DNA of 64,000 bases from Candidatus Bathyarchaeota archaeon. Lineage in GTDB: Archaea > Thermoproteota > Bathyarchaeia > 40CM-2-53-6. The notes under the pieces were generated by a model. It saw only the letters and a program-made list of their open reading frames with translations, was not told the DNA's origin and searched no databases. Below, one piece after another: positions 45,047 through 64,000 of the stretch (its first letter is position 1; every line of letters starts with the position of its first letter). A program made the translations under genes and the position numbers. The DNA is taken from contig CAVSBL010000002.1 of the NCBI GenBank assembly GCA_963726255.1, forward strand, positions 1,920,001 to 1,984,000, read 5' to 3'.

Positions 45047-45173
45047 GGGTCCGTAGCTCAGCCAGGTAGAGCGGCGGATCGGGCGCGAGCCGAAGCTCTT
45101 AGCAACCTGAGGGATACCCGAAGGTCGAGAGCCATCAAAGGCCGACAGGGTTCAAATCCCTCCGGACCCGCCA
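45047..45173 (+). tRNA. tRNA-Lys(CTT) with three BHB introns (30/31, 37/38, 51/52); CCA encoded
   Basis: Removing 45078-45094, 45102-45115 and 45130-45148 gives a 77-nt cloverleaf GGGTCCGTAGCTCAGCCAGGTAGAGCGGCGGGCTCTTAACCCGAAGGTCGAGGGTTCAAATCCCTCCGGACCCGCCA; TTTAAT TATA box at about 45012. Confidence 0.92.
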
Positions 45174-46757: not shown

Positions 46758-47201
46758 TTGACAGGAAAAGCGTTTGCATTATTCACTTCGAGAACAATCA
46801 TCGTTCACATCATCACCTACGTGATCGCGGGCATCGTGGCTTACTGGGTTCAATGGGGCGGTGTGTATGGTGGGCCTGCAATGCAAACGTACATGAAAGC
46901 TCCAGGCGAATTCGCCCCGTGGGTGATTCCCTCTCTGGTTCTGCGGGGATTCATTTTGGCGGTAGCGCTCTACCCGTTTCTCGGCAGAATTCTTGAAATG
47001 AAACGGTGGGGTTGGCTGTCCGTCTCCTCACTCTACCTACTCATTGGGACAGTAGCTGGAAGCGGCGGTATCATCGTTCACATCGTCTTCACAACTACTC
47101 CCATACTCTTTACTTTGGAAACGCTTCCGGAGATAACTGCGCAAGGGTTGATGTTCGGATATCTACTGGTGTACTGGGAGCAGCGGTCGCATCGGAAATG
47201 A
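46758..47201 (+). CDS. Hypothetical four-TM membrane protein
   Basis: Hydrophobic segments; TTG start. Confidence 0.7.
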   Translation: MTGKAFALFTSRTIIVHIITYVIAGIVAYWVQWGGVYGGPAMQTYMKAPGEFAPWVIPSLVLRGFILAVALYPFLGRILEMKRWGWLSVSSLYLLIGTVAGSGGIIVHIVFTTTPILFTLETLPEITAQGLMFGYLLVYWEQRSHRK

Positions 47202-47261
47202 ATTGTCTATTTAAACCGTCGTTGGTTTGACGGTGTGTGGCACTATTCGTGTGTCGCTGAG

Positions 47262-47303
47262 TGAACCCACGATATTGGTGGGTTCGTATCCCACCGGCCC
47301 CAC
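47262..47303 (+). repeat. tRNA-3'-end-derived att-like site, copy 1
   Basis: TGAACCCAC-GATATTG-GTGGGTTCGTATCCCACCGGCCCCAC: T-arm plus acceptor 3' strand, with no 5' tRNA half upstream. Confidence 0.85.
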
Positions 47304-47335
47304 AATTGTTCGCTATGAGAGATAATTCATTGGCC

Positions 47336-47602
47336 TCAAAGGTACGCTGTTTCGCGTCTAGCGATTTTGAAAACGAGAATTTCATCTTTTGTCAGTGTTG
47401 CGTACAGGATTCTATAGTCGCCAACTCTGACCCTGTAGGCATTTGGTGCTCCTCTGAGTTTTCTGCAACCTGCGGGATAAGGCGTTCGGGAGAGTTCGGA
47501 TATCTTCTCTTCGAGCCGCCTTCTTACGTCTGAGGAGGTTTCCCGAAGAGCTTTCGCTGCCTTGCGTGACAGAAAGACCCTGAACGCTTGCGGGTCCTTG
47601 AT
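47336..47602 (-). CDS. relE: RelE/ParE-family toxin lacking a canonical start codon (not in ORF track)
   Basis: FRVFLSRKAAKAL...PYPAGCRKLRGAPNAYRVRVGDYRILY...IARRETAYL. Open frame from an upstream TAA at 47603-47605, with no ATG/GTG/TTG before the domain. Confidence 0.8.
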   Translation of the reverse strand: MKDPQAFRVFLSRKAAKALRETSSDVRRRLEEKISELSRTPYPAGCRKLRGAPNAYRVRVGDYRILYATLTKDEILVFKIARRETAYL

Positions 47603-47766
47603 TTAAGCGGCCTGAAAGTGACAGTCCTGCCTTCGCGATGTTCCTTCATCGCTTCCTCAAGCGCCTTCTTATCGTCAGCTGTCATTTCTTCCCCGAGTAC
47701 CTCTTCTATTGCTTCAAGCCTTTCCCTAATGAGATGAAGCTCCTTTTCGAGAATTAGCTTCGACAT
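47524..47766 (-). CDS. Putative RelB-like antitoxin
   Basis: EEMTADDKKALEEAMKEHREGRTV archaeal antitoxin pattern; overlaps relE; TTTAAA box about 27 nt upstream. Confidence 0.75.
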   Translation of the reverse strand: MSKLILEKELHLIRERLEAIEEVLGEEMTADDKKALEEAMKEHREGRTVTFRPLKSRTRKRSGSFCHARQRKLFGKPPQT

Positions 47767-47885
47767 GGCAACTTAACAATCCGGCTCCCGTCTTTAAATC
47801 GTTCTCCTCAAGTGCCAAACCAGACAGCGCACCCACGGGTTGTTTGATTTCCGTTACTAGCCGTCTAGTGGTGGAAGAAGTTGTC

Positions 47886-47928
47886 TGAACCCACTATGTC
47901 GTGGGTTCGTATCCCACCGGCCCCACCA
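47886..47928 (+). repeat. tRNA-3'-end-derived att-like site, copy 2 (adjacent to the integrase)
   Basis: TGAACCCAC-TATGTC-GTGGGTTCGTATCCCACCGGCCCCACCA; 26-nt core identical to copy 1. Confidence 0.88.
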
Positions 47929-47989
47929 CTCTCGTGGGTACAATCAGCAACTATATAAGTCCAATACAGACATCGCGCCTCGATGTCAG

Positions 47990-49489
47990 TTGCCGTACAA
48001 AGGCCTTGATGCACTGAAGGTGAGGATTGACGACCCTACCGTCCGAGCGTGGGCGGACAAGCTCAAACCCAAGTCACACACAAAACTGCACTCGTTCATT
48101 CTGTTCTGGGAGTGGGCGAAGAAAAGGAAGGAAGAAGACCCTAAGACCGGGAAGATGCGGCGAGTGGGCTATTGGGCCACAGCTCACGAGATGCTTGCCG
48201 ACCATTGGCGATGCATGCAGTCCAAGCAAGCCGAACGACCCTACAAGCACCTTGAGATCGTCAAGAAATACTTGAAGAGCAAAGGTACAAGCCCGAGTGA
48301 CCGCAAGATTGCTCTGAGCTCCATTCGGGCTTTCTACCGCGCTCACAAGCGACCATTGCAGGAGTTAGACAGCACGGAGTGGGAGGACGTTTTCGAACCA
48401 ACAGCGGTTGATTTGGAGCGGAAAAGGGAGCTAACACGCCCTCTCACGACGGCGGAGGTAGCCATGCTAGTTCGCGCCGCCAAGATGCCCTACAAAGCAG
48501 TTTTCCTAGTAATGTTTCAAGGAGCTATGGACGCGGCCGCCTTAGAGCAGTTTAGTGGCAGTCTCTGGCATGACAAGGACAACTTTGACGTGAAAGATCT
48601 CGACCGACTTGGCCCAACCAAGATTGGAGGTTTGATTCGGACGAAGACTATGAGTCGCCAGACAGCGTGCGGAGGCGACATCGACGTTTACTACACTTTC
48701 CTTAGCGAAGATGGAAAGCGCCACCTGAAGCAGTGGTTCGAGGAGAGGCGCGAAATGTTGCAACAGGCAGGGTTGACCGATTCGCCGTATCTTTTCCTGA
48801 ACTGGCGGCGCGGCGGACGGCAGAAATTCCATTCCGATCTCGCGCCGGTCAGCGGAAATACCATTGGTAAGACGGTTACAGGTCTAATCAAGAGACTCGG
48901 TCTCGTTCATCCACCTGAGAAGGCAAAGCGGTCTTCCCGGGTCAGATATTATTTCCACGGCCATGAGCTGAGAGACTGCTTCAAGAGCCAATGCTCGCCC
49001 CTCGGGGTAAGTGAGATTGCCAGCGAGTTCTTCATGGGGCACAATATTGATCGGCTTGGTTACAATAAGTCACCCTACAGCGACGAAGGCTTCAACTTTT
49101 TCCGTGGAGAATACAAGAAAGTGATGCAGAGCCTCGAGATCATTTCCTATCCACCAACTGCGGAGGGTAAGTTCCAACGCAAAGAGACTCTAGCTGAGAT
49201 TAATCGTCAAAACCTCCTGCTCAACAAGGTTCCGCGAAAGGTGGTTGACGGATACACTGTCGAGCAGTTAGCATCAATGACGGTCGAGGAAATGCGACGG
49301 TTGATACGGACGGGCGGGAAGGACACTCAGTCAGACACGGCGACGGACGGAAACGGCTGGGAGTCGGGGCAGCAGAAGGTCGTAACGGCCACAGTGCTGC
49401 GAGAGTGGATAGAACGCGGCTGGCGCTACGTAGACACCATTCCATCTACGGGCGAGGTCATCATCCGCTACCCGGAGAGTTCTTCGTAG
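47990..49489 (+). CDS. Tyrosine recombinase/integrase with C-terminal extensions
   Basis: LSSIRAFY core-binding helix; RTKT; HGHELRD; FMGH; GY. Box I reads GAMDAAAL (Asp at the usual Arg position). Confidence 0.88.
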   Translation: MPYKGLDALKVRIDDPTVRAWADKLKPKSHTKLHSFILFWEWAKKRKEEDPKTGKMRRVGYWATAHEMLADHWRCMQSKQAERPYKHLEIVKKYLKSKGTSPSDRKIALSSIRAFYRAHKRPLQELDSTEWEDVFEPTAVDLERKRELTRPLTTAEVAMLVRAAKMPYKAVFLVMFQGAMDAAALEQFSGSLWHDKDNFDVKDLDRLGPTKIGGLIRTKTMSRQTACGGDIDVYYTFLSEDGKRHLKQWFEERREMLQQAGLTDSPYLFLNWRRGGRQKFHSDLAPVSGNTIGKTVTGLIKRLGLVHPPEKAKRSSRVRYYFHGHELRDCFKSQCSPLGVSEIASEFFMGHNIDRLGYNKSPYSDEGFNFFRGEYKKVMQSLEIISYPPTAEGKFQRKETLAEINRQNLLLNKVPRKVVDGYTVEQLASMTVEEMRRLIRTGGKDTQSDTATDGNGWESGQQKVVTATVLREWIERGWRYVDTIPSTGEVIIRYPESSS

Positions 49490-49659
49490 ACGAGGTCGTT
49501 CCAGCCCTCCAGCTTTGCGCGGAGCACGGCCAGCGGGAGTTCATCCGGCTCGTCCAGCACTCTTTGAACCAGCCTGCTAGTTGGAGCTAGTCGACCCTGC
49601 GTTTGTAGTCCGCGGAGAAACGCCTTGTAAGGTCGCAGATCGACCATATCCTCGGGCAA
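49468..49659 (-). CDS. Small hypothetical protein
   Basis: 63 aa, directly downstream of the 85-aa gene; LxxEPDEL motif. Confidence 0.6.
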   Translation of the reverse strand: MPEDMVDLRPYKAFLRGLQTQGRLAPTSRLVQRVLDEPDELPLAVLRAKLEGWNDLVYEELSG

Positions 49660-49668
49660 CGTGCGACA

Positions 49669-49926
49669 CTACTGCTTCTTCTCGTCTGGCTCATGGAAAG
49701 GCTTGGTCCGGATGTCGTCCTTGATGAAGCTCTTCGCGGCCTCGTCCATGACCTTTGTGCGGATGAGTTCACTCATGCTTTCTTGAGTGAGCTTGCCGAG
49801 GTCTCCGAGTCCGACAATGTCTGCCGGAGAGTAACCCGCGAACATCAGATGATACTTGTTTATCTGCGCGAGAGTCTTTGTCTTGCTCGGCTGCTTTTCT
49901 TGCTCCGGGTCCATCGGCTCTGTCAC
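49669..49926 (-). CDS. Small protein homologous to the integrase C-terminal domain
   Basis: TLAQIN...LGKLTQESMSELIRT aligns with integrase TLAEIN...LASMTVEEMRRLIRT. Confidence 0.7.
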   Translation of the reverse strand: MTEPMDPEQEKQPSKTKTLAQINKYHLMFAGYSPADIVGLGDLGKLTQESMSELIRTKVMDEAAKSFIKDDIRTKPFHEPDEKKQ

Positions 49927-50019
49927 TATCTTGTTGATGCAGACTGGTGTCTTATTTGGGTTTCAAGGGGGCGAGTTTGGACTAGCCTGTTACCTTGAAA
50001 ACTGAATGGGGGTGGCAGT

Positions 50020-50045
50020 ATCCCTATACGAAAACGTATGGGGAT
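50020..50045. promoter_or_regulatory. Inverted repeat with TATACG-N4-CGTAT core (site 1)
   Basis: ATCCCTATACG-AAAA-CGTATGGGGAT, 10/11 paired. Confidence 0.55.
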
Positions 50046-50268
50046 GACGAGAATTTCGCCTACTTCTCGCAAGGCGCAAGGCTTTCAATAGTCGATTTCA
50101 TCGGTGCGCAGTCCGGAGGGATTCATCACTTTTTTAGTGCCGAATCCGATATTTCCAACTCCCTTTCACTGCAGAATACGTCGGCTGATTGAATCCCGGC
50201 TGTAATTTCAAGCTACATTTCTGCGTTAATTCTGTTTCGACAGCTAGTAGGTCCGAAGGAACTCACTA

Positions 50269-50290
50269 GCGTATACGTATGCGTATACGC
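50269..50290. promoter_or_regulatory. Perfect inverted repeat with TATACG-N4-CGTAT core (site 2)
   Basis: GCGTATACG-TATG-CGTATACGC. Confidence 0.6.
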
Positions 50291-50341
50291 GGTGGGTCTT
50301 CACAATCCTCAGATTAGGAGAAGACAAAGCTCTTCCGAGCC

Positions 50342-51118
50342 TCACTTTTCCGTAATGAGGCTCCGTTTCCCTTTAGCTTTGTCCCAACGTAAGTTTCCTG
50401 CTTCGGCGGCCTTTCGATTGATCTCGTCTTCCGTAAAGCCTCTCTCCCGGAGGCGGGATCGCAATTTGGTCGATAAAACACACGGTAACAGGAAAACAGT
50501 TCCCTTGCTCAAGATTGGCATCTCAAGCTCCTGACCGCCGCTTTTCTCCCAAGCTTTCAGGATCATAATCCCATAATATCCGTGGTGCACCTTGTTGACG
50601 TAATCTGTACTAGGCGCCTTAGTGTAGTTGATCTTTCCACGACGCTTCCGATAGAGCCAGCGGTCAACACCCGCCTTCCGTTTCCGGATTCTACCCCGCA
50701 AATACACTCTTTCTCCGTTCTCCAGTCCGAGAATCTGCGGAATAACTCCGAGGTGTCGCTGACCGCACTTCGTGCACATAGGCACCTCTCCCTTTCTCGT
50801 CCTCTTCAGTGCTAGCGTTGCGTCTGTCCTCCCGACAACTTGATAATAGCGTCGAATTTCACTGGGCCCCCCAGCGATCCCTCGAATCTCTAGCAGCATC
50901 CCAACCTCGACTCGGGTGGCATCGCCCCAAAGATGCTCGGCCCTCTGGTTTTCTAAATCAATCCAATACTTGGTTCCCGAAGGTTTCGGGTAGCAGATAC
51001 GAACAGACACAACCACATATCTTCCGTATCTGCCTGGTAACCTAAACTTGTCTTTCCTGATGGGGCAATTGACATGGTCTCGGCCCAGGGAGGTCCGATC
51101 AACAGGGAGGATAATCAT
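50342..51118 (-). CDS. Basic hypothetical protein with a Zn knuckle
   Basis: 258 aa, Arg/Lys-rich, CTKCGQRH. Confidence 0.6.
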   Translation of the reverse strand: MIILPVDRTSLGRDHVNCPIRKDKFRLPGRYGRYVVVSVRICYPKPSGTKYWIDLENQRAEHLWGDATRVEVGMLLEIRGIAGGPSEIRRYYQVVGRTDATLALKRTRKGEVPMCTKCGQRHLGVIPQILGLENGERVYLRGRIRKRKAGVDRWLYRKRRGKINYTKAPSTDYVNKVHHGYYGIMILKAWEKSGGQELEMPILSKGTVFLLPCVLSTKLRSRLRERGFTEDEINRKAAEAGNLRWDKAKGKRSLITEK

Positions 51119-51218
51119 CCCTCTACCTTTGCCAAAGCGTTCTGAGAATGCCGTGGTGTGCTCATCGCCCTATGTCTTGATCTTCTATGCTTACAGGCAA
51201 CAATTCACGATTCTGGAA

Positions 51219-51929
51219 TCAGTATGCAATTCCAAATTTCTGCAGGCGTACCTGCGCTCGTTGCTTAACCCAGTGCGCATCGAATCCAAGTCTAGACGTT
51301 AATCTGGTCAATCGGACCGCTTCCTCAGATTCAGTTATTTCATCCGTGATTTTTTCCAATTGTGATTCAATGTCTCGACGAGTGATTACGCCCCATTTCA
51401 ATATTGAACGGAGTGCTTTCACAACTGTGTTGAGGGACTCTCTGTGTACGTAGGCGCGTCTGCGTCTCATTACGTAGGCGCTCGCTTTTCCCTTGCAATA
51501 TGCGACTTCCCAATCTGCGTTCTGCCTTGCCCGAAGTTTTTTCAGTGCTTGCTCATCTTCCTCTATCCTTCTGTTGAGCCAGCGTATGTCAGATTTTGCG
51601 TCGGGAACATGCTTCAGGACTGCTCGTTCGGATTTCCAGATGCGAATCGACCGCTTAAAATCTGATAACCATGCTGCTCTCAATCGCCGCTGCTGACGTA
51701 GATATGATGCGTGTTTCGTGGGTCTCGGTCCGATTGTAAATTCAGCATTGTTTGCCCTCAGGATGCGTTTCACATCGTCGAGATGCCTCTTGCGAGTCCA
51801 CATTGTGCCATGAGACTGGTGAGTCACATACCGACTGAGAATGCCTTTCTTTTTCTTTGGATGTTTTCTTCCGAACAGCTTCTCATGTATAGTTGATTTG
51901 TTCTTCGCGGGGAGGCGATAACTAATCAT
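51219..51929 (-). CDS. Basic hypothetical protein; N-terminal ferredoxin-fold-like domain plus coiled coil
   Basis: MISYRLP...LFGR...GIL pattern. Start placed at ATG 51929 because the upstream ATG lies inside the 54-bp repeat. Confidence 0.6.
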   Translation of the reverse strand: MISYRLPAKNKSTIHEKLFGRKHPKKKKGILSRYVTHQSHGTMWTRKRHLDDVKRILRANNAEFTIGPRPTKHASYLRQQRRLRAAWLSDFKRSIRIWKSERAVLKHVPDAKSDIRWLNRRIEEDEQALKKLRARQNADWEVAYCKGKASAYVMRRRRAYVHRESLNTVVKALRSILKWGVITRRDIESQLEKITDEITESEEAVRLTRLTSRLGFDAHWVKQRAQVRLQKFGIAY

Positions 51930-51936
51930 TATGTCC

Positions 51937-51990
51937 GATTTTGACAAACTTGGACCGAATATTGTCCTAGTCATTTCGCTTTAAAAACAT
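51937..51990 (+). repeat. 54-bp direct repeat copy A (promoter/operator-like)
   Basis: GATTTTGACAAACTTGGACCGAATATTGTCCTAGTCATTTCGCTTTAAAAACAT; 51/54 identical to copy B. Confidence 0.9.
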
Positions 51991-52006
51991 CCTGCCTAAC
52001 AATTTT

Positions 52007-52843
52007 ATGACAATATTAGAGATCGATCGCGGGCCCGTCAAGAGGCTGCGGTTTTTCGGATATCTCGGTGGTAAGCAACGGCTAATCAAAACCATTCTAC
52101 CCCTCATCCCTAAGCACTCTCGATATGTGGAAGTGTTCGGTGGATCCGCAGCGATTCTACTGAACAAGCCTCCAAGCGCTGTCGAGGTTTTCAACGACAT
52201 AGATGCCGAACTAATCAACCTCTTCATGACCGTCCGAGACCATCCCAAACAGTTTGCACGCTATGTCCAAAGCCTGCCATACAGTCGGGAACTGTATGAA
52301 CGTTGGCAACGGCAAATCAAGAACGAGGGCTTACACGGGACCCAGCTTGAACACGCAGCCGAGTTCTACTACCTACTTCGGAGTTCCTTTTTCTGCCATG
52401 TTGAGAAAGGTTGGCGCTTCGCAACCAAAACAGACGAAGCGAGCCGACTCTATAACTGCATTGGTGAAGTTGAAACCATCGCACGGCGATTGCAGAGTGT
52501 TTACATTGATCACTTGGATTTCCGGCGCTGCATCAAGAATTGGGATAGGCCGGACACTTTCTTCTTCCTGGACCCCCCATACTATGGCGCCGTTCCGTAC
52601 CGGAAAGGTGTCCCCGCATTCACCGTCCAGGATCATGAGGACCTAGCATCTCTGCTTCATCACACCAAGGGCAAGTGGCTGCTCACATACAACGACCACC
52701 CGAGAGTTGTGGAGTTGTACGCTGGCGACAGGCGCATAGCAGTTTCCACGGCTTTGAACACGGACAAGATGGCTGCCAACCGCAGGCTTCAGCGGCAACT
52801 AATCATTCTAAAAAATAGTCAGAAAGAAGAAGGGCTTCACTGA
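52007..52843 (+). CDS. Dam-like (D12 class) DNA adenine methyltransferase
   Basis: YLGGK, YVEVFGGS, VFNDID, FLDPPYY, WLLTYND. Confidence 0.92.
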   Translation: MTILEIDRGPVKRLRFFGYLGGKQRLIKTILPLIPKHSRYVEVFGGSAAILLNKPPSAVEVFNDIDAELINLFMTVRDHPKQFARYVQSLPYSRELYERWQRQIKNEGLHGTQLEHAAEFYYLLRSSFFCHVEKGWRFATKTDEASRLYNCIGEVETIARRLQSVYIDHLDFRRCIKNWDRPDTFFFLDPPYYGAVPYRKGVPAFTVQDHEDLASLLHHTKGKWLLTYNDHPRVVELYAGDRRIAVSTALNTDKMAANRRLQRQLIILKNSQKEEGLH

Positions 52844-52856
52844 GGAAGGATATGGC

Positions 52857-53156
52857 ATGATCACCTTAGAGCTGAGCAAGAGGACCTTGCAATGGCTTGT
52901 TGATTGCCTGGAAGCCACTGTGCCCACGGTCTGCCGAGGATGTGGAAGAGAGATAATCCGCTGCCCCCTCTGCGGCGATTGGACATTGTACTACGCGAAC
53001 CCCGATTGCAGGTACGGCGGCTTGTCGGTTTCCGACATGCTAAAAACGCCATTCCACATTCACATTGGGGAGTCTTCTTCTTTCTTCTCCCTTAGGAGGG
53101 GTAAGAGAATCCACTCACACCACCCTCTGAAATCCTCAACATGCCACGGATTTTGA
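52857..53156 (+). CDS. Hypothetical zinc-finger protein
   Basis: CRGCG...CPLCG; GAGG SD-like sequence upstream. Confidence 0.55.
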   Translation: MITLELSKRTLQWLVDCLEATVPTVCRGCGREIIRCPLCGDWTLYYANPDCRYGGLSVSDMLKTPFHIHIGESSSFFSLRRGKRIHSHHPLKSSTCHGF

Positions 53157-53202
53157 CAATCTCGGACCGAATATTGTCCTAGTCATTTCGCTTTAAAAGC
53201 AT
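53149..53202 (+). repeat. 54-bp direct repeat copy B
   Basis: GATTTTGACAATCTCGGACCGAATATTGTCCTAGTCATTTCGCTTTAAAAGCAT. Confidence 0.9.
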
Positions 53203-53219
53203 TTGAAACAGCGCTTACG

Positions 53220-53756
53220 GTGAAACCGGTGGCAATAAGGGGAATAACGAAAGGAAAACTGAAGGTAAGCGCATCAGGGATCAAACACGCTCGTCAGTCT
53301 CCTGGGCGAGGCTGGTCAGATTCTACAATCCCAGAGTTGTGGAACTATTGCGACCTCTGGTTAGAGGATAGGAAGTGTGACTACTGGCGAAAGTTCCCCT
53401 GCCCAAAGTGCGGTGCCGACGCCTGGGAGTCGTTGACGGAGAGAGTAACCGACGACAACGGGTTCGGTGAAGAATGGGTTATTGAACAGGGAGGGGAGTG
53501 CGACCACGTCCCCTACGACAAATATGTTTTGGTCACGTGCCAAGCAGTCGATGTGGTCGAAAACGGCAAAACCGTAGCGGTTGTCGAACCCGACTCTTAC
53601 GATCCGGTTGACTGGCTAAGGTACGAGTACAAGAGGAATGGACCAGACGTAGATTACCGCCGTCCGGTCGCTGCCTTTGGCACTCTCTTCCAAGCGACGA
53701 CGGCGACGGTCGTGGAAAGCCGGGCCTTAGCGCTCGCCGAGGACGAGACCAATTGA
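53220..53756 (+). CDS. Hypothetical protein with Zn ribbon
   Basis: CPKCG...ECDH; 4-bp overlap with the ATPase gene. Confidence 0.65.
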   Translation: MKPVAIRGITKGKLKVSASGIKHARQSPGRGWSDSTIPELWNYCDLWLEDRKCDYWRKFPCPKCGADAWESLTERVTDDNGFGEEWVIEQGGECDHVPYDKYVLVTCQAVDVVENGKTVAVVEPDSYDPVDWLRYEYKRNGPDVDYRRPVAAFGTLFQATTATVVESRALALAEDETN

Positions 53757-56227
53757 GTCGCACGAAGGACGCCTCCACGTATTCGGAAATGAACTCGGTC
53801 GGGAGATTTGACGTGGGCTTTGCAGCTTTTGTTGCGTCTATAATATCGATTTTTGTCGTCCTCGTTCTTTTCTCATACACCGAAATCTTGTTTGTACTTC
53901 TTCTCCTCGCTCCTCTTTGGGTGCTTACGGGTTGGGTTGCAAACAGGCACATCGCACAGCACAACAAGCAGCCGAACGCTCAAACAATCATGGTTTGTCC
54001 CGGCTGTACTGTCGAAGAGAAATGGAAGACACTCGGTTACAGCATGATTGTTGCAGCGGTTCCAAACTACATCGCAAGCGCAGTCCTGACGGAAATCGAA
54101 GCGGTCAGAGTCCCACTCACAGGATGGCCCATCACCTTATCGCCCCTATTTCATGTGTTCACAGCGCTGTTCTTGATCTTGGCGATATTTACCATCCTTA
54201 AGGCGCGAAGTTACTCACATGACCTTGCGGAGTTCAAGACCGCCTACGCCTCCTCTACCACTTATCAAACATTAGAAATGGCAAAAGATGGGCGTGTCGT
54301 ACTCGGTCATGAATTTCGTTATGCCATACAAACTTCAGTACCGACCGCTGCTGATTCACTGCACCCTCTGCCTGGTGAGATTAGGACTAGAACCGTTAGA
54401 CAATGGATTGGAAAAGACGGTCCCTTCACAGTGGATCTGGAAAAGGAGAGAAACCCGCACTGTGTGGTCTTCGGCAGCTCGGGGACAGGGAAAAGCGAAA
54501 CCGTCAGAGCCCTCGTCCTCCGTTACTGGTTAGCGAAGCAGATTCCCTCTCTGATTATAGATTGGCAAGGAGAATACGCTTCTTTCGTGAGGAAGATTGG
54601 AGGAGTGGTTTGGTCGGTTCCGCAGGAATTCACTGTGAACCCACTTCGTCTGGAAGGATTCAGACCATCACAACGAGCTGCTGAAATCGAAGAATCGCTG
54701 ATTGTCAACCTAGAACTTACTGCTTTACAGGCATCCGAGGTGCGGAAAATTGTCTCTGAAGCCTACCGAGAAGCCGGCATAGAGGAAGAAGACAAGGAAA
54801 CATGGAAACTTCCTCCTCCAGTATGGGGCGACATCATCGAGATAATGAGCGCCAAACTGCGAAGCGGGCAATACACGGGCGAAAAAATCCAATGGATCGA
54901 TTGGGCTATTCTCAGGCTGCAACGGGCTGACCGTATCTTCGGCGAAGAAACGCAAGAATTCTTTGGCGTGGCATTGAAGGTGCCGACGTGCATCGACCTA
55001 TCAGGTCTCTCGGGCGCAGATGTCGCCAAGGCTCTGGTCACCTACACAATTTTCCAGCGCATATATGACCAGTTCGATATTAGAGGATTTAGCGTTCTCA
55101 AGCTCCTAGTTGTTTTGGAGGAAGCACACCAAATCCTGCAAAGCCAAATTGGAAAGACGAATAGTACTCAAGAGTCATTGATTGTCAGAATCATAAGACT
55201 CGGTCGAAAATATGGTTACGGAGTAATCCTTGCCAGTCATCAACCCACAGACATACCACAAGCAGCAATCTCGAATGCGGCAACCATAGTCGCCATGATG
55301 CTGGATGAACCACAACAGGTCAACTATGTAAGAAGATTCGTCAACCTCTCAAAACCTGAGAGAGAGATATACGCTACCCTACCGCAAGGCGGGGCATTCA
55401 TCAAACACCTGGGCGAGCCGCACTCGCACCTCGTCAAGACCCAGATGGTGTCTGTCGATGAAATTCAGTTCTCAAGGTCACTCACCGAAAAAATACGCAA
55501 TGAAGTACTGAAGCCTCCCACGCTGCAGCCGCTATCAATGAGGTCAACAGACCCTCCTGCAACCGAGACTACACAAGCACGTTCAGTTCGTGTATCCTCC
55601 AGTCCATCTCTGAATGAAGTGGACGAGGCTCTGACTATGCTCCAGAAAAGAATCCAGCATTTTCTGGAGGGCGGTCCAACGACAATGAAAAAACTGCTTA
55701 AAGCATTTCCTAATGTAGCTTACCGAGAATTGTTGACGTACCTCAGTGATTTGGAGAATCATGGCTTTGTCCAAGAAGAAAAAGTTGCAAACCTTGAAGG
55801 AAAGGGGACAGTCTTCTATGCTGCGCTCAAGTCGGAATGGCTTCAAAGCGAAAGCATAGAACACAGAGCAATGCTTCTGATGATTTCAGAAGCTCTGAAC
55901 CACCTCCGCCCGGTCCCGTATATGCGATCCGAAGCGAATGCGCCGGACTTGGGTTTGGAACTTACAAATCCAAAGATTGCCATAGAAGTTGAAACCGGGC
56001 GGAAAAAACTAACATTCGCTGAACTTGACAAGTGGGCGACAGATGTCAAAATCCGTAACATTAAACTCGGTTACAGAGATATACTAGTTGTCGTGCCAAA
56101 TGCATCTGTCGAAGCTCACTACAAAGAGGCGTGCGAAAAAACCGGATTAGAACTGACAACAATGGCGAAACTCGGAGCCAAACCATGTGACAGCGACAAA
56201 GGAGACGCGGAAAGCAACGCAGGTTAA
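53753..56227 (+). CDS. Membrane-anchored VirD4/VirB4/HerA-like ATPase with C-terminal wHTH and PD-(D/E)XK-like domain
   Basis: N-terminal TMs; NPHCVVFGSSGTGKS, IIDWQGEY, VLEEAH, GRKYG, SHQP; C-terminal EH...APDL...IAIEVETG. Confidence 0.85.
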   Translation: MSRTKDASTYSEMNSVGRFDVGFAAFVASIISIFVVLVLFSYTEILFVLLLLAPLWVLTGWVANRHIAQHNKQPNAQTIMVCPGCTVEEKWKTLGYSMIVAAVPNYIASAVLTEIEAVRVPLTGWPITLSPLFHVFTALFLILAIFTILKARSYSHDLAEFKTAYASSTTYQTLEMAKDGRVVLGHEFRYAIQTSVPTAADSLHPLPGEIRTRTVRQWIGKDGPFTVDLEKERNPHCVVFGSSGTGKSETVRALVLRYWLAKQIPSLIIDWQGEYASFVRKIGGVVWSVPQEFTVNPLRLEGFRPSQRAAEIEESLIVNLELTALQASEVRKIVSEAYREAGIEEEDKETWKLPPPVWGDIIEIMSAKLRSGQYTGEKIQWIDWAILRLQRADRIFGEETQEFFGVALKVPTCIDLSGLSGADVAKALVTYTIFQRIYDQFDIRGFSVLKLLVVLEEAHQILQSQIGKTNSTQESLIVRIIRLGRKYGYGVILASHQPTDIPQAAISNAATIVAMMLDEPQQVNYVRRFVNLSKPEREIYATLPQGGAFIKHLGEPHSHLVKTQMVSVDEIQFSRSLTEKIRNEVLKPPTLQPLSMRSTDPPATETTQARSVRVSSSPSLNEVDEALTMLQKRIQHFLEGGPTTMKKLLKAFPNVAYRELLTYLSDLENHGFVQEEKVANLEGKGTVFYAALKSEWLQSESIEHRAMLLMISEALNHLRPVPYMRSEANAPDLGLELTNPKIAIEVETGRKKLTFAELDKWATDVKIRNIKLGYRDILVVVPNASVEAHYKEACEKTGLELTTMAKLGAKPCDSDKGDAESNAG

Positions 56228-56746
56228 TTCCAGCCAATCTGAGGTCGTGGGTGTTGATTGCAGACCAGGTAGGTTTCCTGTGCGCCTGTCCCCTTGCCCC
56301 TGCATGATCCCCTCTTAATAGTGATTGACAACTTGCACTCTTTCTCCTCGGTTAATTGACCTCGTGTCCGTGCAATGCCTCTCCGGCAGTTGGCAGCCTC
56401 CCCGAGGGCATCTCTTTCTTAGCTTTCCGCTGCGAGCATGTCCAGGTCGCTTTTCGCTCTTTGTCTATGGCAGCTTACCGAGATGCTTGGAAGATGGGGC
56501 AGCGCCCCAGCCCCTCAACGCGGAGAGACGCCCACGGTACCCTGATGGGGGTGGCGACAAACCAACATTCTGCCAGGACAACTGGCGATTAAGTTCCAGT
56601 TCAAGTTGGGGGATTTCTCCCGCCTCATGCTGAGCAACTGCTGGGGCTGCTTGAGAAGGCGGCGGAAGAACAGAGGTACAACTAATCGAATATCTTTCCC
56701 GCCTCTATACACAGCGCTATGCGCTCTTTCAAGAAAACGCTGCATC

Positions 56747-57007
56747 TCATGATTCAGATGTCTTATCAGAAGACCAGTCGGAAAAGACATGAGGTTTACC
56801 TTCTGTTGTGAACTTTCCTTCCGTCCCCTTGATTCCTCCCCCCTTCAAGATTCCCTCATACTGTTCGTGCTCACATTTGTCACACTTGAATTGTCTGTAT
56901 TGTTGCCTAGCGCCGCTAGCTTCACCTTTGTCAAACGTTTGCCCTGTAGGATTTAGATGCCCTTCTCTGCATTTCGGGCAAAGGTCACCTGCTGGCAACT
57001 TGACCAC
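56747..57007 (-). CDS. Zinc-ribbon protein
   Basis: CPKC...CDKC. Confidence 0.65.
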   Translation of the reverse strand: MVKLPAGDLCPKCREGHLNPTGQTFDKGEASGARQQYRQFKCDKCEHEQYEGILKGGGIKGTEGKFTTEGKPHVFSDWSSDKTSES

Positions 57008-57083
57008 TAGATTGGAGAACCTTGCTTGTCGAATCCAAATCGGAGAATACCGGACGGCTGGACAATCCCTTTTCGTGTTCTTC

Positions 57084-57668
57084 TCAGTTGTTATGTGTGA
57101 AGATGTTGGTTACAGGTTTATGCCTCGGGTAGGGTGGAAGAAGGGCTGGGAATGTATCCGGCTTGCCTTTCAGGGTTAGCGATGCCCTCACGGCACTTTC
57201 TATTCGGCCACCAATGATACGCTCCACAGTTTTCGTTAATCGTTCCTGCCAGTCTGGCATATATGCGGAGAGCAGGTTCTTGAAGAGCTTGTTGTGTCGC
57301 CGCACCTTTAAGTGAAGAAGCTCGTGACAGATCACATATTCTACGAACTGCTTGGGCATGTTCAGAAGCTTTTCATTCAACGTAATGTTCCGCGACGGCG
57401 AGCAGGAAGCCCACTTGTTTCTTAGTCTTCTTACCTGAACGTTCCCAGTTTTGACGCCAAGCTTGTTTTTCCACGACTGAACCATTTGTCGGATTTCTCG
57501 GTTGGTCAGGCAACCGGTTAGGCCGTTTGTGTTGGTTTCCGAGACGGCTGACTCCAGGAGCTCTCTTGATTCCGCGGTCAAGGATTCAGGGAGAGCTATT
57601 GTCAGCACCTCAGGTGATAAGTAGTAACCGATTGAGTTTCGGGTTTCTTTCCTGAGCCTAATCTTCAT
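57084..57668 (-). CDS. M48/YgjP (DUF45)-family metallopeptidase-like protein
   Basis: KWASCS, YVICHELLHL, HN..F, YMPDW; ATGA overlap with hsdR. Confidence 0.88.
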   Translation of the reverse strand: MKIRLRKETRNSIGYYLSPEVLTIALPESLTAESRELLESAVSETNTNGLTGCLTNREIRQMVQSWKNKLGVKTGNVQVRRLRNKWASCSPSRNITLNEKLLNMPKQFVEYVICHELLHLKVRRHNKLFKNLLSAYMPDWQERLTKTVERIIGGRIESAVRASLTLKGKPDTFPALLPPYPRHKPVTNIFTHNN

Positions 57669-60553
57669 GGCCCGATCATCCTCCTGTGAACGTCGAGAAT
57701 TGAGTTGACTACTTCCGGGAGTTTTTCCGGTGAAGCCTTCCCAAGCAATAGCTTGTAGACTCGCATTCTCACGTCCATCTCCTTCTTCTTGTCCAAGGGC
57801 CAAGTCTTGTTGCTTTCAAGGAGCTTGAAGATTTGTCGTGACAAGGCTGTGATGTCATTTGGGATTTTGTATTCTCTGAGCGACCAGAACACGCCGTATT
57901 CCCCTGTGCTTAGCTTCAGCTGAATCCTTTCTGCTTCGGACTTTGCAATTCTGTCGGCGATCTCTAGAAGATGATTGAGAGCCTCTTTACTTTCGATTTG
58001 TCTTTCTTCGAATTTCCTGATTACCTGCTCAGCTATGACTCCGATCGAAAACAGATAAGGCTCTCGCTTCGCTCCAGTCTGGACGTGTATCACTATGCTT
58101 CTGTAGAGGTTCACAACCTTGGCTTTTTCAGGGATTCTTTCACCCTGAAGTTTCTCAACGACTTTGTCATCAATCCTGTAGGCCGGGAGGCTTGCAATTG
58201 CTGACTGCAGATCGACGTGCTTCCTAATCAGTTCCTTAGTCTTGTTTCTTAGGTCTCTGTAGAGATCCGCCTCTTTCGGTCGGAACATATTCTGGATTAT
58301 CTTGTATAGCTCGCCGAGCGCTGCATAGTCCTCAATGTAATCACGCAAAAACACGTCAGGAGAGAGAATTTCGAACAGCGCTTCAATTTGCTTGAACAGC
58401 TTCGAGAACTTCTCTCTTTCCTTCGGATCAACGAATCTCTCTGCAATTGCACCGAGCGTCTTGTCGTCAATGCCCCCTTTTATGAGCGCTAGGTAATCGC
58501 GTCCTTGCTTCATTAGTTCGACGAATCTCTCTTTGAGCACGGTGAGGTCTGTGAGAGCGCCTTCGACAGTCTCTGAGTCAAAGCTAAGTGCTCTTTTGAG
58601 GTCTTCGAGGACTCCGACAAAATCTACTATCAGACCCGCCGATTTCTTTTGGCCCGCTTCGTCATCCAATGGCCTGTTTACTCTTGCTATCGCTTGGAGA
58701 AGTGTGTGGTCCTTGAATGGCTTGTCCAGATACATGCAGTAGAGAATCGGTGCGTCAAAACCCGTAAGCAGCTTTTGAGTTACTATGAGAATCTTGGGAA
58801 GCTTGTCTGCAGACTTGAAGCTGGTTCTGACGTTTTCCTCCTGCTCCTCGGACAGGTGAAAGGTCTTGAGTAACTGTGAATCCCTCTGGTCCGGGGTGAA
58901 GACGACGGCAGAACAATCCGGCGGAAGATACTTGTCCAGCGCACGCTTGTAGAGCGCACAGCCCTCTCTGTCAACGGCGACGATGAAGGCTTTCAATCCC
59001 AACGGTTCTACGTATTGCCTGAAATGGTTAGCCATGAACTTCGCAACTTTGTCGACCCTGTCTTCCGACTTGAGAAAGTTCTTGAGCTTGACTGCTCTGT
59101 CAAGCACCTTGTCAAGTTCTTCGATGCTTGCGATGCCTTCCTTTTCAACAAGCGCGAAGAACTCTTTTTCGAGCAGTTCCTTGTCGACGCGCATGTCTTG
59201 AGGCGCTAATGCGTAATAGAGCGGCACTGTCGTGCGGTCTTGTATCGATTCCCTGATGGAATATTTGTCCAAATATCCTTGCGGGTCATGCTTGCCGAAC
59301 ACAACAAAGGTTCCTTTGCCGATGTTGCTTCTGTCGATCGGCGTTCCCGTGAAACCGAAATAGGAGGCACGAGGCATCGCTGCACGCATGTAAGTTCCTA
59401 GATTGCCTTCCTGAGACCGGTGCGCCTCGTCGACCAGTACGATTATGTTCTTTCGGGTGTTGATGTCTTTCTCGATGCCTTCGAATTTCTGTATCGTTGT
59501 TACAATCAGTCCTCTGTAGTCGCTCTTGAGCAAGTCGCTGAGATGTTCCTTGTTGTCGGCCAGTTTACAGTTTGGAAAACCGAACGAGACCAGGTTCTTC
59601 CACATTTGGCTCTCTAGTTCGGTCCTATCAATGACCACCAGGATGGTTGGCTTCTCAAGGGAACTCTGCTTTCTGAGCCTGTGCGCCGCCACAATCATGG
59701 TAAATGTCTTGCCTGAACCCTGAGTATGCCAAACGAGGCCTGAGTCAAGTCCCTCAGAAATCACGCGGCTGACTATTTTCTCAACAGCTCTCATCTGATG
59801 TTGATCGAGCACGAATTTGTAGAGCTCTTCATCCTTCGTGAAGAAGAAAGTATAGTCCTCTAGCAATCGAAGAATCCTGGATTTGTCGAAGAAGTCTTTG
59901 ACAAGGTTCTCTAGGTTTACATCATCGCCGAGTTTCCATTTGTGAATGTTCCTCTCATCCAGATTCCAAGTAGGTCCAAACTTAAGTTGAATCCCATCGC
60001 TCAAGGCGAAAAGCTGGACTACTTTCATGAGGTCAGGAATTTCCTCGTGATATCGTTGGACCTGTGCCTTCGCTTCCCTAATGGGATCCGAAACAGCAGG
60101 TGACTTCGTTTCGATGAGTGTCAGAGGGATGCCGTTGACGAAAAGTGTGATGTCGGCGCGGTCTGTCTCTATGTCAGAGAACTCAAATTCCTTTGTAGCA
60201 TGGAAATCGTTGTTCTCAGGATGGTCGAAATCGATGAGTTTGATGTTGAGTTCCCTTCTTTCCTTCTCGATATAAATCGTCTTCTCTCCTCGAAGATACT
60301 GCAGGAATTCCTGGTTGCCCCCAAGATTCGCGCGTACATTCTTCAGCTTCTTGACGACTTCGTCAACCTGCTCGTCTGTAGTTATGACGCCCTTGTTGAG
60401 TTCCTTGATCTTCTGACTCAATATAGGCAGGAGAAAGTGTTCGGTGATATTGTCGCGGAGTTCGAGGCACCTGTCTGGCTCTAAGTATTTCCAACCTATC
60501 TCGTCTAGGTACTTAATGATTGGATCCCGTACGGCTTTGAATTCAAGAGGCAT
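57665..60553 (-). CDS. hsdR: Type I restriction enzyme R subunit
   Basis: RADITLFVNGIPL.LIETK, WHTQGSGKT, VDEAHRS, FTGTP, LLTGFDAP, QAIARVNR. Confidence 0.96.
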   Translation of the reverse strand: MPLEFKAVRDPIIKYLDEIGWKYLEPDRCLELRDNITEHFLLPILSQKIKELNKGVITTDEQVDEVVKKLKNVRANLGGNQEFLQYLRGEKTIYIEKERRELNIKLIDFDHPENNDFHATKEFEFSDIETDRADITLFVNGIPLTLIETKSPAVSDPIREAKAQVQRYHEEIPDLMKVVQLFALSDGIQLKFGPTWNLDERNIHKWKLGDDVNLENLVKDFFDKSRILRLLEDYTFFFTKDEELYKFVLDQHQMRAVEKIVSRVISEGLDSGLVWHTQGSGKTFTMIVAAHRLRKQSSLEKPTILVVIDRTELESQMWKNLVSFGFPNCKLADNKEHLSDLLKSDYRGLIVTTIQKFEGIEKDINTRKNIIVLVDEAHRSQEGNLGTYMRAAMPRASYFGFTGTPIDRSNIGKGTFVVFGKHDPQGYLDKYSIRESIQDRTTVPLYYALAPQDMRVDKELLEKEFFALVEKEGIASIEELDKVLDRAVKLKNFLKSEDRVDKVAKFMANHFRQYVEPLGLKAFIVAVDREGCALYKRALDKYLPPDCSAVVFTPDQRDSQLLKTFHLSEEQEENVRTSFKSADKLPKILIVTQKLLTGFDAPILYCMYLDKPFKDHTLLQAIARVNRPLDDEAGQKKSAGLIVDFVGVLEDLKRALSFDSETVEGALTDLTVLKERFVELMKQGRDYLALIKGGIDDKTLGAIAERFVDPKEREKFSKLFKQIEALFEILSPDVFLRDYIEDYAALGELYKIIQNMFRPKEADLYRDLRNKTKELIRKHVDLQSAIASLPAYRIDDKVVEKLQGERIPEKAKVVNLYRSIVIHVQTGAKREPYLFSIGVIAEQVIRKFEERQIESKEALNHLLEIADRIAKSEAERIQLKLSTGEYGVFWSLREYKIPNDITALSRQIFKLLESNKTWPLDKKKEMDVRMRVYKLLLGKASPEKLPEVVNSILDVHRRMIGP

Positions 60554-61877
60554 ACTGAGCCCCCAAATCAAAATCCTTGAGTCGAATTATCCCAATCGCA
60601 AGCTTCCGGAGCATCGTGTTGAACAGTTGCTGAAGAATGCTTTTCCGGTTTTCTTCAACCTTGATTTTTCTGTCTAGAGACATCAACAAGTTAACTATTT
60701 CCTGTTGCTCGGGGATTGGCGGCAATGGAATCTGAAAGGTCCTTAGTCTTGTGGCGCTGATATTTGATTGACCGACTGCCCTGCTTGCGAGACCCTTGAG
60801 TCTTCGTTGGCTATTGGCCCAGTTCAGATAGTAGTTTACAAACTGTGGAAGGACTTGCTTTGGGTCGGTTTGTAGTCTTATCAGATAGGATGCGAAAACG
60901 AGCTCGCCTTCAAGGTCGAAAAACGATGTCTTCCCAACCAAATCAATGCTGTTCGTTCTATTGAACAATAGATCGCCTTTCTTCAACCGAAATCGGCGAA
61001 ATGTTTCCTCATCAAGATCTACATATTGCACATCGTCTAGCACCAAATCTCCATCTTCGAGGTTGTTCATCCGAAGTATAGGATACTGGCCTTCTTTACT
61101 TCCCTTCAAGGATAGACCATATTGAGCGACGGTAAGGACTTCGCTCAGAGTTGTAGGTTTCCATTTCTCAGGTACCGCGCCAATTTCTCCCCCTTCTTTG
61201 TACTTGGTAGGGTAAACGCCGCTAGTCAATAGCTTGTGCATAAGCGATTTCTTCAGATTTCTGATGGCCAGGAGCAATAGATCTTGCTTGTATACTGCCT
61301 GCTGGATCTTGGAAAGGACAAGAGAGATACTTTGTTGCTCATGAAGAGGCGGTTTCGGCAACACAAACGACTGAAGCCTACCCTGCGAGAGGTTAGGTAT
61401 TGTTGTCTTGATCCCTTCACCTGCATAGAGTCCGAGTTGAAGAAAAGCAGTCTGCATCCAGTACATGTAATATTCTGGACAAATGTCATCCCTCCGCTTG
61501 CGCAGACGATGAATGTGGTTCTGATGGGCACAGACTTCTAACTCGCCCCTCCAGATCGCCGTTCGACCAACTTCGCCCCCTTCGCAAACAAGAATGTCAT
61601 TTGGCTCAAGCCGTAATCTCGAAAGTTCCTGAGCAGTAAAATGCATATGATCCAGTGTTGAGAGGTCAATGCGGCCCCAAAGGACGTTCAGCGTGCGAAG
61701 AAAGGGATACTGCGGTTGTCTTGCGCGGCCCGCTGGCGACATAGCTTTTCCTTGTTGAATGTCAAATGCGTCGCCGAGCGCAACAGTTTCCCAATCTTCC
61801 GGTATTGGGCCGACTTCGCTATCCTTTACTCCCTCTGTTCTAGCTGCCAGAACTTCCATGCTCAATGTAACCTCCAT
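60543..61877 (-). CDS. hsdS: Type I restriction-modification specificity subunit
   Basis: Two TRDs with IPEDW/VPEKW and PPLHEQQ/PPIPEQQ conserved blocks. Confidence 0.94.
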   Translation of the reverse strand: MEVTLSMEVLAARTEGVKDSEVGPIPEDWETVALGDAFDIQQGKAMSPAGRARQPQYPFLRTLNVLWGRIDLSTLDHMHFTAQELSRLRLEPNDILVCEGGEVGRTAIWRGELEVCAHQNHIHRLRKRRDDICPEYYMYWMQTAFLQLGLYAGEGIKTTIPNLSQGRLQSFVLPKPPLHEQQSISLVLSKIQQAVYKQDLLLLAIRNLKKSLMHKLLTSGVYPTKYKEGGEIGAVPEKWKPTTLSEVLTVAQYGLSLKGSKEGQYPILRMNNLEDGDLVLDDVQYVDLDEETFRRFRLKKGDLLFNRTNSIDLVGKTSFFDLEGELVFASYLIRLQTDPKQVLPQFVNYYLNWANSQRRLKGLASRAVGQSNISATRLRTFQIPLPPIPEQQEIVNLLMSLDRKIKVEENRKSILQQLFNTMLRKLAIGIIRLKDFDLGAQYAS

Positions 61878-63408: not shown

Positions 63409-63601
63409 TGCAACATTCCCTCTTGTTTCAAGACCTTAGAAAATACACTGTTCACAAAATGTCCACAAGACTCTACACGGTTCCTCTTGGCCTCGCAAGT
63501 CATACTTACTATTTTCCCACGATGTCTCAAAAAGCTTGGCGGTACTTCTATTGTTCTAGACGAACGGACGATGATATTGTGCATGCAGAAGCAACGCCGC
63601 C

Positions 63602-64000
63602 TCATTCCAGCGCTGCACTCGCTACAGTGCCAGTTACATCTGTAAGCTTCAGTTCGAAATCCCTGGTAACATCGTCGGCGCCACTGAGTGCATGAGATGC
63701 TTCGTGCAATAGCGTCCCAGCATACTTGTCGAGAGAGCGGAGAGCGCTTCGCTTGACGATAATTCTGCCACTTCCAGCCTCCCATAACCCATCGTCTTCA
63801 ACAAACGACCCTAGCTTCTTCCTCATCGTCTCCGAAACCTTGATCTCCTTGACAATTCTTGGCTTGCCGCCAATGAGTCTGAGAATTTCGTCAGTCTTGT
63901 CAAACACTTTTCTCTCTGATTCCTTCAACTCTCTGGGATTTACAAACTTGAATTGGAAACTTTCGTGGTATTCGGTCACGAACTGGCCCAGGTCTCTAAT
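63602..64000 (-). CDS. C-terminal part of a larger protein with an HExxH zincin-like motif (5' end outside the window)
   Basis: Frame is open to base 64000; YAGTLLHEASHALSGADD. Confidence 0.7.
   Translation of the reverse strand: MRDLGQFVTEYHESFQFKFVNPRELKESERKVFDKTDEILRLIGGKPRIVKEIKVSETMRKKLGSFVEDDGLWEAGSGRIIVKRSALRSLDKYAGTLLHEASHALSGADDVTRDFELKLTDVTGTVASAALE

Follow-up and report, generated by a model that had tools for sequence, protein, structure and literature searches.

Two direct copies of a tRNA 3′ end bracket a small RelBE-type toxin-antitoxin cassette, next to an integrase gene, in a 64,000-nucleotide (nt) stretch of the genome of a Candidatus Bathyarchaeota archaeon (GCA_963726255.1, contig CAVSBL010000002.1, positions 1,920,001 to 1,984,000; hereafter the window). 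The source genome, G000, amounts to 2.42 Mb in 5 contigs. The 26-mer that forms the tRNA-like part of each copy occurs exactly twice in the window, both times on the plus strand, at 47278-47303 and 47901-47926, with a period of 623 bp and an expectation of 0.00 in 100 dinucleotide shuffles. We refer to the two attachment (att) copies as c5 and c6. Copy c5 (47262..47303, +) consists of TGAACCCAC at 47262-47270, the 7-nt spacer GATATTG at 47271-47277 and the 26-mer, which reads as a T-arm-like sequence followed by the 3′ strand of an acceptor stem. Copy c6 (47886..47928, +) consists of TGAACCCAC at 47886-47894, the 6-nt spacer TATGTC at 47895-47900 and the 26-mer, followed by CA, which completes a CCA end. 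The copies share 35 identical positions (9 + 26), both contain a dyad of the form GAACCCAC-N7/N6-GTGGGTTC (N7 in c5, N6 in c6), and both T-loops read TTCGTAT and lack A58. An earlier note, made from the sequence alone, had described two direct tRNA 3′-end copies, each preceded by TGAACCCAC and a 6- or 7-nt spacer; reading the sequence and counting the exact 26-mer bear this out.

Neither copy is accompanied by the 5′ half of a tRNA, as had also been stated: upstream of the copies no such half was found, ARAGORN calling 0 genes in the window and Rfam recognizing only a tRNA at 45047-45170. The sequence upstream of c5 and c6 folds into little besides the dyad hairpin, and a cloverleaf there was rejected as a candidate, the only match being a weak one of the transfer-messenger RNA (tmRNA) model over c6 (17.3 bits, with a gathering score of 47). 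The intron-containing tRNA at 45047..45170 (+; Rfam tRNA, 31.5 bits) is ruled out as the parent of the repeats by its differing acceptor (GGGTCCG...CGGACCC), which agrees with the earlier observation that an adjacent tRNA-Lys does not match them; ARAGORN run with introns calls this gene Pro(ggg) with an odd long arm, where Lys had been read before. A further ARAGORN call, a "tRNA-Pro(cgg) with a 2169-nt intron", is chimeric, joining this same tRNA to c5.

Two open reading frames (ORFs) lie between the copies, both on the minus strand. The RelE/ParE-type toxin frame (47336..47602) matches PF05016 (E=1.4e-7) and phrog_1213 (E=7e-15). The RelB-like antitoxin ORF (47524..47766), which has no family match in Pfam or NCBIfam, encodes 80 aa in the source genome and 61-63 aa in relatives. 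A single G-to-C change at approximately 47582-47584 converts the RelB stop codon TGA to TCA and the overlapping RelE start codon TTG to TTC. The arrangement is intact in the relatives G007 and G001 and at the metagenomic locus L081, and an 82-aa toxin ORF with a TTG start is present in L081 and G007; judged from these reading frames, the toxin is probably not made in the source genome. The earlier reading that only RelBE lies between the copies thus stands, with a toxin that has lost its start codon.

To the right, the integrase gene (499 aa, 47990..49489, +) starts 62 nt after c6 and matches phrog_1 integrase (E=4.6e-6). A profile built from 5 of its homologues matches the archaeal XerA structure 4a8e (E=5.4e-4) over the H-x-x-R/GH boxes and, on the strength of these matches, we take the ORF to be a divergent tyrosine recombinase. 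It belongs to a 36-kb element whose cargo occupies 49490..64000 and continues to G000:C2:2003410, where the element ends at a further copy, c7 (G000:C2:2003411-2003448), which has a 7-nt spacer and lies outside the window, 19.4 kb past its end. To the left, c5 is preceded by 49 nt (47213..47261, +) that form an arm of the site and the start of an inserted island, and by a membrane-protein gene (46758..47201, +), an ORF without a Pfam family.

A tRNA-Pro-derived family of modules

The parent of the copies is a four-intron tRNA-Pro(GGG) gene at G000:C2:979301-979123 (minus strand), ~1 Mb from those in the window. The gene begins with GGGGCCG and ends with the T-arm and acceptor sequence of the modules; its T-loop is the canonical TTCAAAT, and its 3′ end differs from the 26-mer at 2 T-loop positions only. 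Once the four putative introns are removed, their positions having been inferred from conserved versus variable blocks in three orthologues, ARAGORN calls tRNA-Pro(ggg). A parent with a GGGGCCG acceptor, such as Pro, had been deduced from the repeats, and a genome search for the 26-nt core and its parent tRNA, which had been proposed as a check, recovered both this gene and a family of related modules.

Elsewhere in the source genome, a third exact 26-mer and five near copies were found, with 0 matches to a reversed control pattern. The regular expression CCCAC-N4-9-GTGGG-N7-CCCA identified 9 full modules in this genome, all on contig C2, and the pattern CCCAC-N5-7-GTGGGTNCNNATCCC matches at 51 places, spread over 14 of 23 genomes in the genus, its reversed control again at 0. 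A scan of a viral contig collection with the 26-mer gave 0 matches. Spacer length divides the modules into three classes (5, 6 and 7 nt), c6 belonging to the 6-nt class and c5 and c7 to the 7-nt class; modules of the 5-nt class have canonical TTCRAAT loops and a left flank ending in ATTAGT. In a table of 36 modules, drawn from 27 loci in relatives and the 9 of the source genome, an extension of the dyad by at least 3 Watson-Crick pairs past CCCAC/GTGGG is found in 21 of the 28 modules with 6- or 7-nt spacers and in none of the 8 with 5-nt spacers. Sublineages also differ by paired changes, namely GAA/TTC versus GTA/TAC and, at the fourth outer position, C-G versus T-A. Since kinship inflates counts of this kind, we take the extension and the paired changes as supportive only.

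Several further clusters of such sites were observed. In the source genome, at least 6 tRNA-Pro-type copies lie within 27 kb at G000:C2:459567-486070, and three copies lie at the native tRNA-Pro gene (G000:C2:973590-979301). On G015:C3, seven T-arm copies occur in 13 kb, interspersed with citrate-transporter, NYN-domain and zinc-ribbon genes and one integrase gene. On the same contig (L071, 7050-8087), a 345-aa ORF matching the integrase family PF00589 (E=4e-19) starts with the GTG of the T-stem of a 5-nt-class module; in this type of integrase, the reading frame may enclose att, as it does in the SSV type.

Cassettes differ between strains at exact site borders

Comparison with close relatives reveals what has been inserted at the locus. 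In G021, the flanks are 92-95% identical to those of the source genome, the segment from window position 47213 to C2:2003579 (36.4 kb) is absent, and an intact HAD-type hydrolase gene is in its place; identity ends at window position 47212. A scan of metagenome contigs with window 47895-47926 recovered six loci, two of which, L078 and L081, represent the same locus as that in the window. Relative to the source genome, these two are 95-96% identical in the membrane-protein gene (92-96% when G021 is included), 94% in the 49-nt left end, 99% in the RelBE unit and 96-97% in a 131-nt right flank. The 36-kb element is absent from both, as it is from G021.

The order of units at this locus differs in each case. 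L078 contains, from left to right, c5, RelBE, the left side of c6, a 1.0-kb unit encoding a 97-aa ORF and a 160-aa PIN-domain protein, a 6-nt-class site and the 131-nt flank. L081 is identical in layout, except that a 2.2-kb unit encoding a 132-aa ORF and a KaiC-type ATPase, followed by a 5-nt-class site, stands ahead of the flank. In the source genome, RelBE is followed by the 36-kb element, c7 and the flank. All differences among the three lie between modules, beginning and ending inside the block that the modules share, and flank identity is 92-99%. None of the three small units (RelBE, PIN and KaiC) encodes an integrase. The difference between L081 and L078 has the form of one site-specific insertion, in which the left side of the old site is unchanged and is followed, after the shared block, by the right arm of the new unit, and in which the new unit's own left arm and a shared block precede the old right flank. 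The PIN unit is found as well in an array at the native tRNA-Pro gene of G001. Thus cassette content, which the earlier note had proposed to compare among relatives, does vary among near-identical strains, and it does so at exact site borders. These variable copies at insertion borders, together with T-loops devoid of A58, also favor the earlier view that the copies are dedicated recombination sites and not parts of tRNAs.

Homologues of the RelBE unit were found in five relatives. In G007, the unit lies between chromosomal genes with modules on both sides and no integrase nearby; in G001, modules are likewise present on both sides, the right copy being degenerate; and in G013, a module is present on the RelE side only. 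In sequence archives, a 3863-nt Logan contig from run X1 spans c5, RelBE, c6 and the integrase with 1 difference. In two other studies, the RelBE unit forms a Logan contig of its own, with 4 differences in 655 nt and 3 differences in 572 nt, and the integrase is largely uncovered.

In L078 and L081, a larger island encloses the whole array; it is bounded by an imperfect direct repeat (78-79%) of the final ~58 nt of the membrane-protein gene. The repeat pair is at 1044-1101 and 5600-5655 in L081 (79%) and at 5478-5535 and 7846-7901 in L078, and the corresponding sequence in the window is at ~47155-47212. Such a repeat points to an older integration into the 3′ end of the membrane-protein gene. 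The left end of the island, comprising the 49 nt and a 7-nt-class module, recurs in G016:C42 at 79%, where homology begins at the same base, and the possibility that the left side of c5 is the end of an element lying leftward was ruled out, the 49 nt being the island's own left end in L078, L081 and G016:C42. In the source genome, the right repeat has since been lost, together with a 137-aa ORF and the 3′ portion of the HAD gene. Because the array is bounded by a repeat of the membrane-protein gene and not by a tRNA, we suggest that the tRNA-Pro-type site travelled here on another element and then became a landing pad.

Linkage between integrase and site extends beyond the window. Homologues of the window integrase are present in 8 of the 23 genomes at E<=1e-5, the source genome counted, and we read the integrase loci of five relatives, four of them full-length or nearly so and one partial. 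In four of these five loci, a tRNA-Pro-type 3′ end lies within ~100 nt upstream of the integrase start and in the same orientation; in the G017 locus, the module is inverted. In 5 homologues, att precedes a conserved MPYKGL start. In G004:C18 and G003:C12, the upstream 3′ end belongs to a complete four-intron tRNA-Pro gene, so these homologous elements have at their left junction the intact target tRNA that is missing from the window. At their far ends, the elements of G004 and G003, 8-9 kb in size, carry 6-nt-class modules with TTCGTAT or TTCATAT loops. On metagenome contig L077 (~137-230), what looks by eye like the conserved integrase start (MPYKNLE) begins ~75 nt past the same 32-nt site. 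A split integrase of the suicidal SSV type was considered and rejected for the 36-kb element: the integrase start lies downstream of att, and no N-terminal fragment runs into c7.

Since the tRNA retains TTCAAAT and the far site retains a variant loop, strand exchange is placed 3′ of the T-loop. By this comparison and the strain junctions above, the exchange block common to all events is ATCCCACCGGCCCCAC, which lies 3′ of the T-loop and outside the dyad spacer. Exchange at this position would also account for module T-loops without A58, as these would be element-arm sequences that do not enter the tRNA upon integration. Two proposals of the earlier note do not survive: the dyad and its spacer had been taken for the crossover core, which the comparison of left and right junctions (attL and attR) relocates to ATCCCACCGGCCCCAC, and the low efficiency predicted from the differing spacers falls because exchange lies outside the dyad spacer. 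The position agrees with a review (PMC8371274) in which archaeal integrases are reported to prefer tRNA genes at their non-symmetric 3′ end.

The arms that flank the exchange block differ between elements. A TAC variant of the arm motif, GTGGGTAC, is found beside the integrase of the 36-kb element (47934..47941, +) and again in each arm of c7; c6 has a T-arm of the TTC type, as in L078. In the G004 and G003 elements, all three corresponding positions are TTC. From this pattern, we read c6 as a hybrid junction, its left side derived from the RelBE cassette and its right side from the 36-kb element.

Probable tandem accretion and its alternatives

We consider it likely that the locus represents an array of units accreted in tandem by site-specific integration, with sites copied from the 3′ end of tRNA-Pro(GGG), and that c5 and c6 are junction att sites. 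According to this model, each mobile unit would carry one site, composed of a left arm, the shared exchange block and a right arm. The left arm would be element-specific, consisting of CCCAC, usually extended to GAACCCAC or GTACCCAC, a 5-7-nt spacer and a T-arm look-alike, and the right arm would often include another GTGGGT(T/A)C. Whichever resident copy was the target, integration would duplicate the shared block, and internal sites would be hybrids that take their left arm from the left-hand unit and their right arm from the right-hand unit. The 0.62-kb RelBE unit would then represent an integrase-less cassette, possibly still excisable, beside an integrase-bearing 36-kb defense island. Small cassettes are probably moved in trans by integrases like the neighboring one, for which the GTGGGT(T/A)C/GAACCCAC repeats are putative binding sites.

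Several observations weigh against this model or parts of it. The loss of the RelE start and the RelB stop indicates that the RelBE cassette is decaying in the source genome, and modules are lacking around the RelBE homologues of G016 and G012. The Logan contigs of four runs, which break at the repeats, showed neither an excision product or circle nor an empty RelBE site, and among the joints listed for them none crosses 47304-47926 to skip the cassette; a loose end at 47212 in X2, which fits either an allele with an empty site or the junction at the right-hand repeat of the island, was left out of account. KaiC genes in G014, including a homologue with 83% identity, have no modules within 1.5 kb and lend no support to mobility of the KaiC cassette. 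L078 and L081 are metagenome assemblies in which a mis-join at the repeats, only 28-45 nt long, is conceivable in principle. The array is located inside the outer island and not at a tRNA gene, and no integrase responsible for the outer-island event was found. The window integrase has no match in Pfam and none in NCBIfam at E<=0.01, including TIGR02249 (integron integrase).

Alternatively, the small units could be inert scars, that is, deletion remnants of larger integrase-bearing elements that had integrated serially and whose sites are no longer used. In favor of this, the full 8-9-kb elements of G004 and G003 share their left-arm type with the right end of the RelBE unit, RelE is inactivated and the right end of the island is deleted in the source genome, and modules in G001 and G007 (the second copy in the latter) and the source-genome copy c3 are degenerate. 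We nevertheless regard this explanation as unlikely. What L081 has beyond L078 is a single clean 2.2-kb unit with no remnant of an integrase, in shared flanks that are 96.7-97.6% identical; three different small units each have one complete module; and c5 and c6 have kept their 35 identical positions, with c6 abutting an intact integrase gene.

Cassettes could also be shuffled by general homologous recombination between short tRNA-like repeats, without a site-specific recombinase, and all junction differences do fall within 16-28 nt of identity that could in principle be used in this way. Such homology is, however, very short, the linkage between integrase and site is conserved, the arm motifs are element-specific and co-vary, and units with a single site imply circular cassette intermediates, which fits site-specific integration; we judge general recombination to be improbable. 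It is hardly conceivable that the copies are functional tRNA pieces, either 3′ halves of a split tRNA-Pro or tRNA-like RNAs, as the heavily intron-fragmented tRNA genes of the source genome, an orphan tRNA 5′ part at C2:907081 and the weak tmRNA-model match over c6 might suggest, given that the T-loops (TTCGTAT, TACAAAT) lack A58 and the TAC variants U55 as well, T-stem or acceptor positions are broken in several copies, a complete tRNA-Pro(GGG) is present, the copies are numerous, strain-variable and situated at insertion borders, and the surroundings of the copies yielded no GGGGCCG 5′ half with a complementary trailer. Our results caution against taking tRNA-like fragments with odd T-loops in intron-rich archaeal genomes for tRNA pseudogenes or split tRNAs.

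Beyond tandem accretion at this locus, we tentatively raise a broader and rather doubtful possibility, namely that the genus practices an integron-like form of gene capture on a mimic of the tRNA-Pro 3′ end. Integrase-less cassettes of 0.6-2.2 kb, mostly toxin-antitoxin pairs and each with one ~45-60-bp site containing a hairpin-capable dyad, would be inserted and excised in trans by the integrases of larger elements, and copies of the site carried by cassettes and islands would serve as portable landing pads, remote from the tRNA gene, at which defense islands accrete. If movement in trans does take place, these uncultured sediment archaea would offer a compact natural system for studying how tyrosine integrases recognize tRNA-derived sites, as well as a model for the accumulation of toxin-antitoxin pairs and defense islands at portable landing pads. 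Four natural states of the locus are available (empty, two cassettes, three cassettes, and one cassette with the 36-kb island), and its sites are defined precisely enough for a recombination assay.

Related systems and minor observations

The closest parallels are the accretion of cis-mobilizable elements (CIMEs) with integrative and conjugative elements (ICEs) in streptococci, as outlined in part of PMC5704250, and the tandem integrated elements of archaea that are treated in portions of PMC6563490 and PMC8371274. In ICESt1-type accretion involving ICEs or integrative and mobilizable elements (IMEs), the relevant section of PMC5704250 describes units flanked by attL and attR that lack integrase and transfer genes and lie in tandem with an integrase-bearing element in one att site; the same section has a tRNA-type 3′ end as a target and leads one to expect composite and partial excisions. 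The window matches this description in that nothing but the RelE and RelB ORFs lies between c5 and c6, and in that a single 36-kb element accounts for the right side of c6 as well as the left side of c7. It differs in its host, an archaeon with intron-rich tRNA genes; in its very small units (0.62-2.2 kb), mostly toxin-antitoxin pairs, of which several stand in series; and in its position on a portable copy of the site instead of at the tRNA gene, with no conjugation genes identified. CIMEs are defined by decay of an ICE or IME, and the left-arm type of the RelBE unit does match that of the full G004 and G003 elements, yet the comparison of L081 with L078 indicates a clean insertion of a small unit.

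Archaeal non-suicidal (pNOB8-like) integrases that target tRNA genes resemble the present system in having an unsplit integrase gene beside att, as stated in parts of PMC8371274 and PMC6563490. Their att is the 3′ part of a tRNA gene, and the passage of the review cited above states the preference for this end. Our ~45-bp modules fall within the 29-69-bp range given there for crenarchaeal att sites, and tandem arrays are known from the same two sources. In contrast, the window integrase is too divergent for Pfam and NCBIfam models, with 17 families listed in that part of the review, and the present left arm has an inverted copy of the T-stem motif and integrase-less cassettes use the same site.

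The earlier note had suggested an integron-like tandem att array, and this proved partly correct: the array is tandem and its cassettes vary between strains, but no integron integrase is present, as judged by the absence of a TIGR02249 match. Integrons, including those reported in archaea (10.1101/2022.02.06.479319), are similar in their strain-variable arrays of small cassettes, toxin-antitoxin pairs among them, each with one hairpin-capable dyad site, and in the supply of a tyrosine recombinase from outside the cassette. They differ from the present locus, where there is no IntI-type integrase, no attI or common promoter platform was recognized by reading, the sites are by reading tRNA-derived with exchange outside the dyad, and cassettes occur in both orientations, some with an integrase of their own. 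The pdif/dif modules of Acinetobacter plasmids (PMC6449649 and others) are small modules, toxin-antitoxin modules among them, that are bounded by short recombinase sites made of a dyad and a spacer and whose movement is attributed to a recombinase encoded outside them. Their sites are XerC/XerD dif-like with exchange in the spacer, whereas ours are direct repeats of a tRNA 3′ end with exchange outside the dyad, in a chromosomal array. Our literature search for integrase-less att-flanked cassettes in archaea was not exhaustive.

The cargo of the 36-kb element includes genes that Pfam assigns to a D12 methyltransferase (52007-52843), a HerA/FtsK-like ATPase (53753-56227) and the type I restriction-modification proteins HsdR, HsdS and HsdM (57665-63408). 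Judged by these genes, the element looks like a defense island. Past the end of the window, at G000:C2:1985013-1999990, the same element contains an SMC-like ATPase, metallophosphoesterase (Mre11) and HerA-like trio and a PLD-domain protein.

The tRNA genes of the source genome are extremely intron-rich; only 17 regions genome-wide pass the Rfam tRNA cut-off in an assembly rated 98.5% complete. At G000:C2:907081 (+), the 5′ part of a tRNA (GGGGCCG and the D-arm) runs straight into a small minus-strand gene, and a 16-nt tRNA 3′ remnant is found 7.2 kb downstream at G000:C2:914344 (+). Together, the two may represent a tRNA gene interrupted by an insertion.

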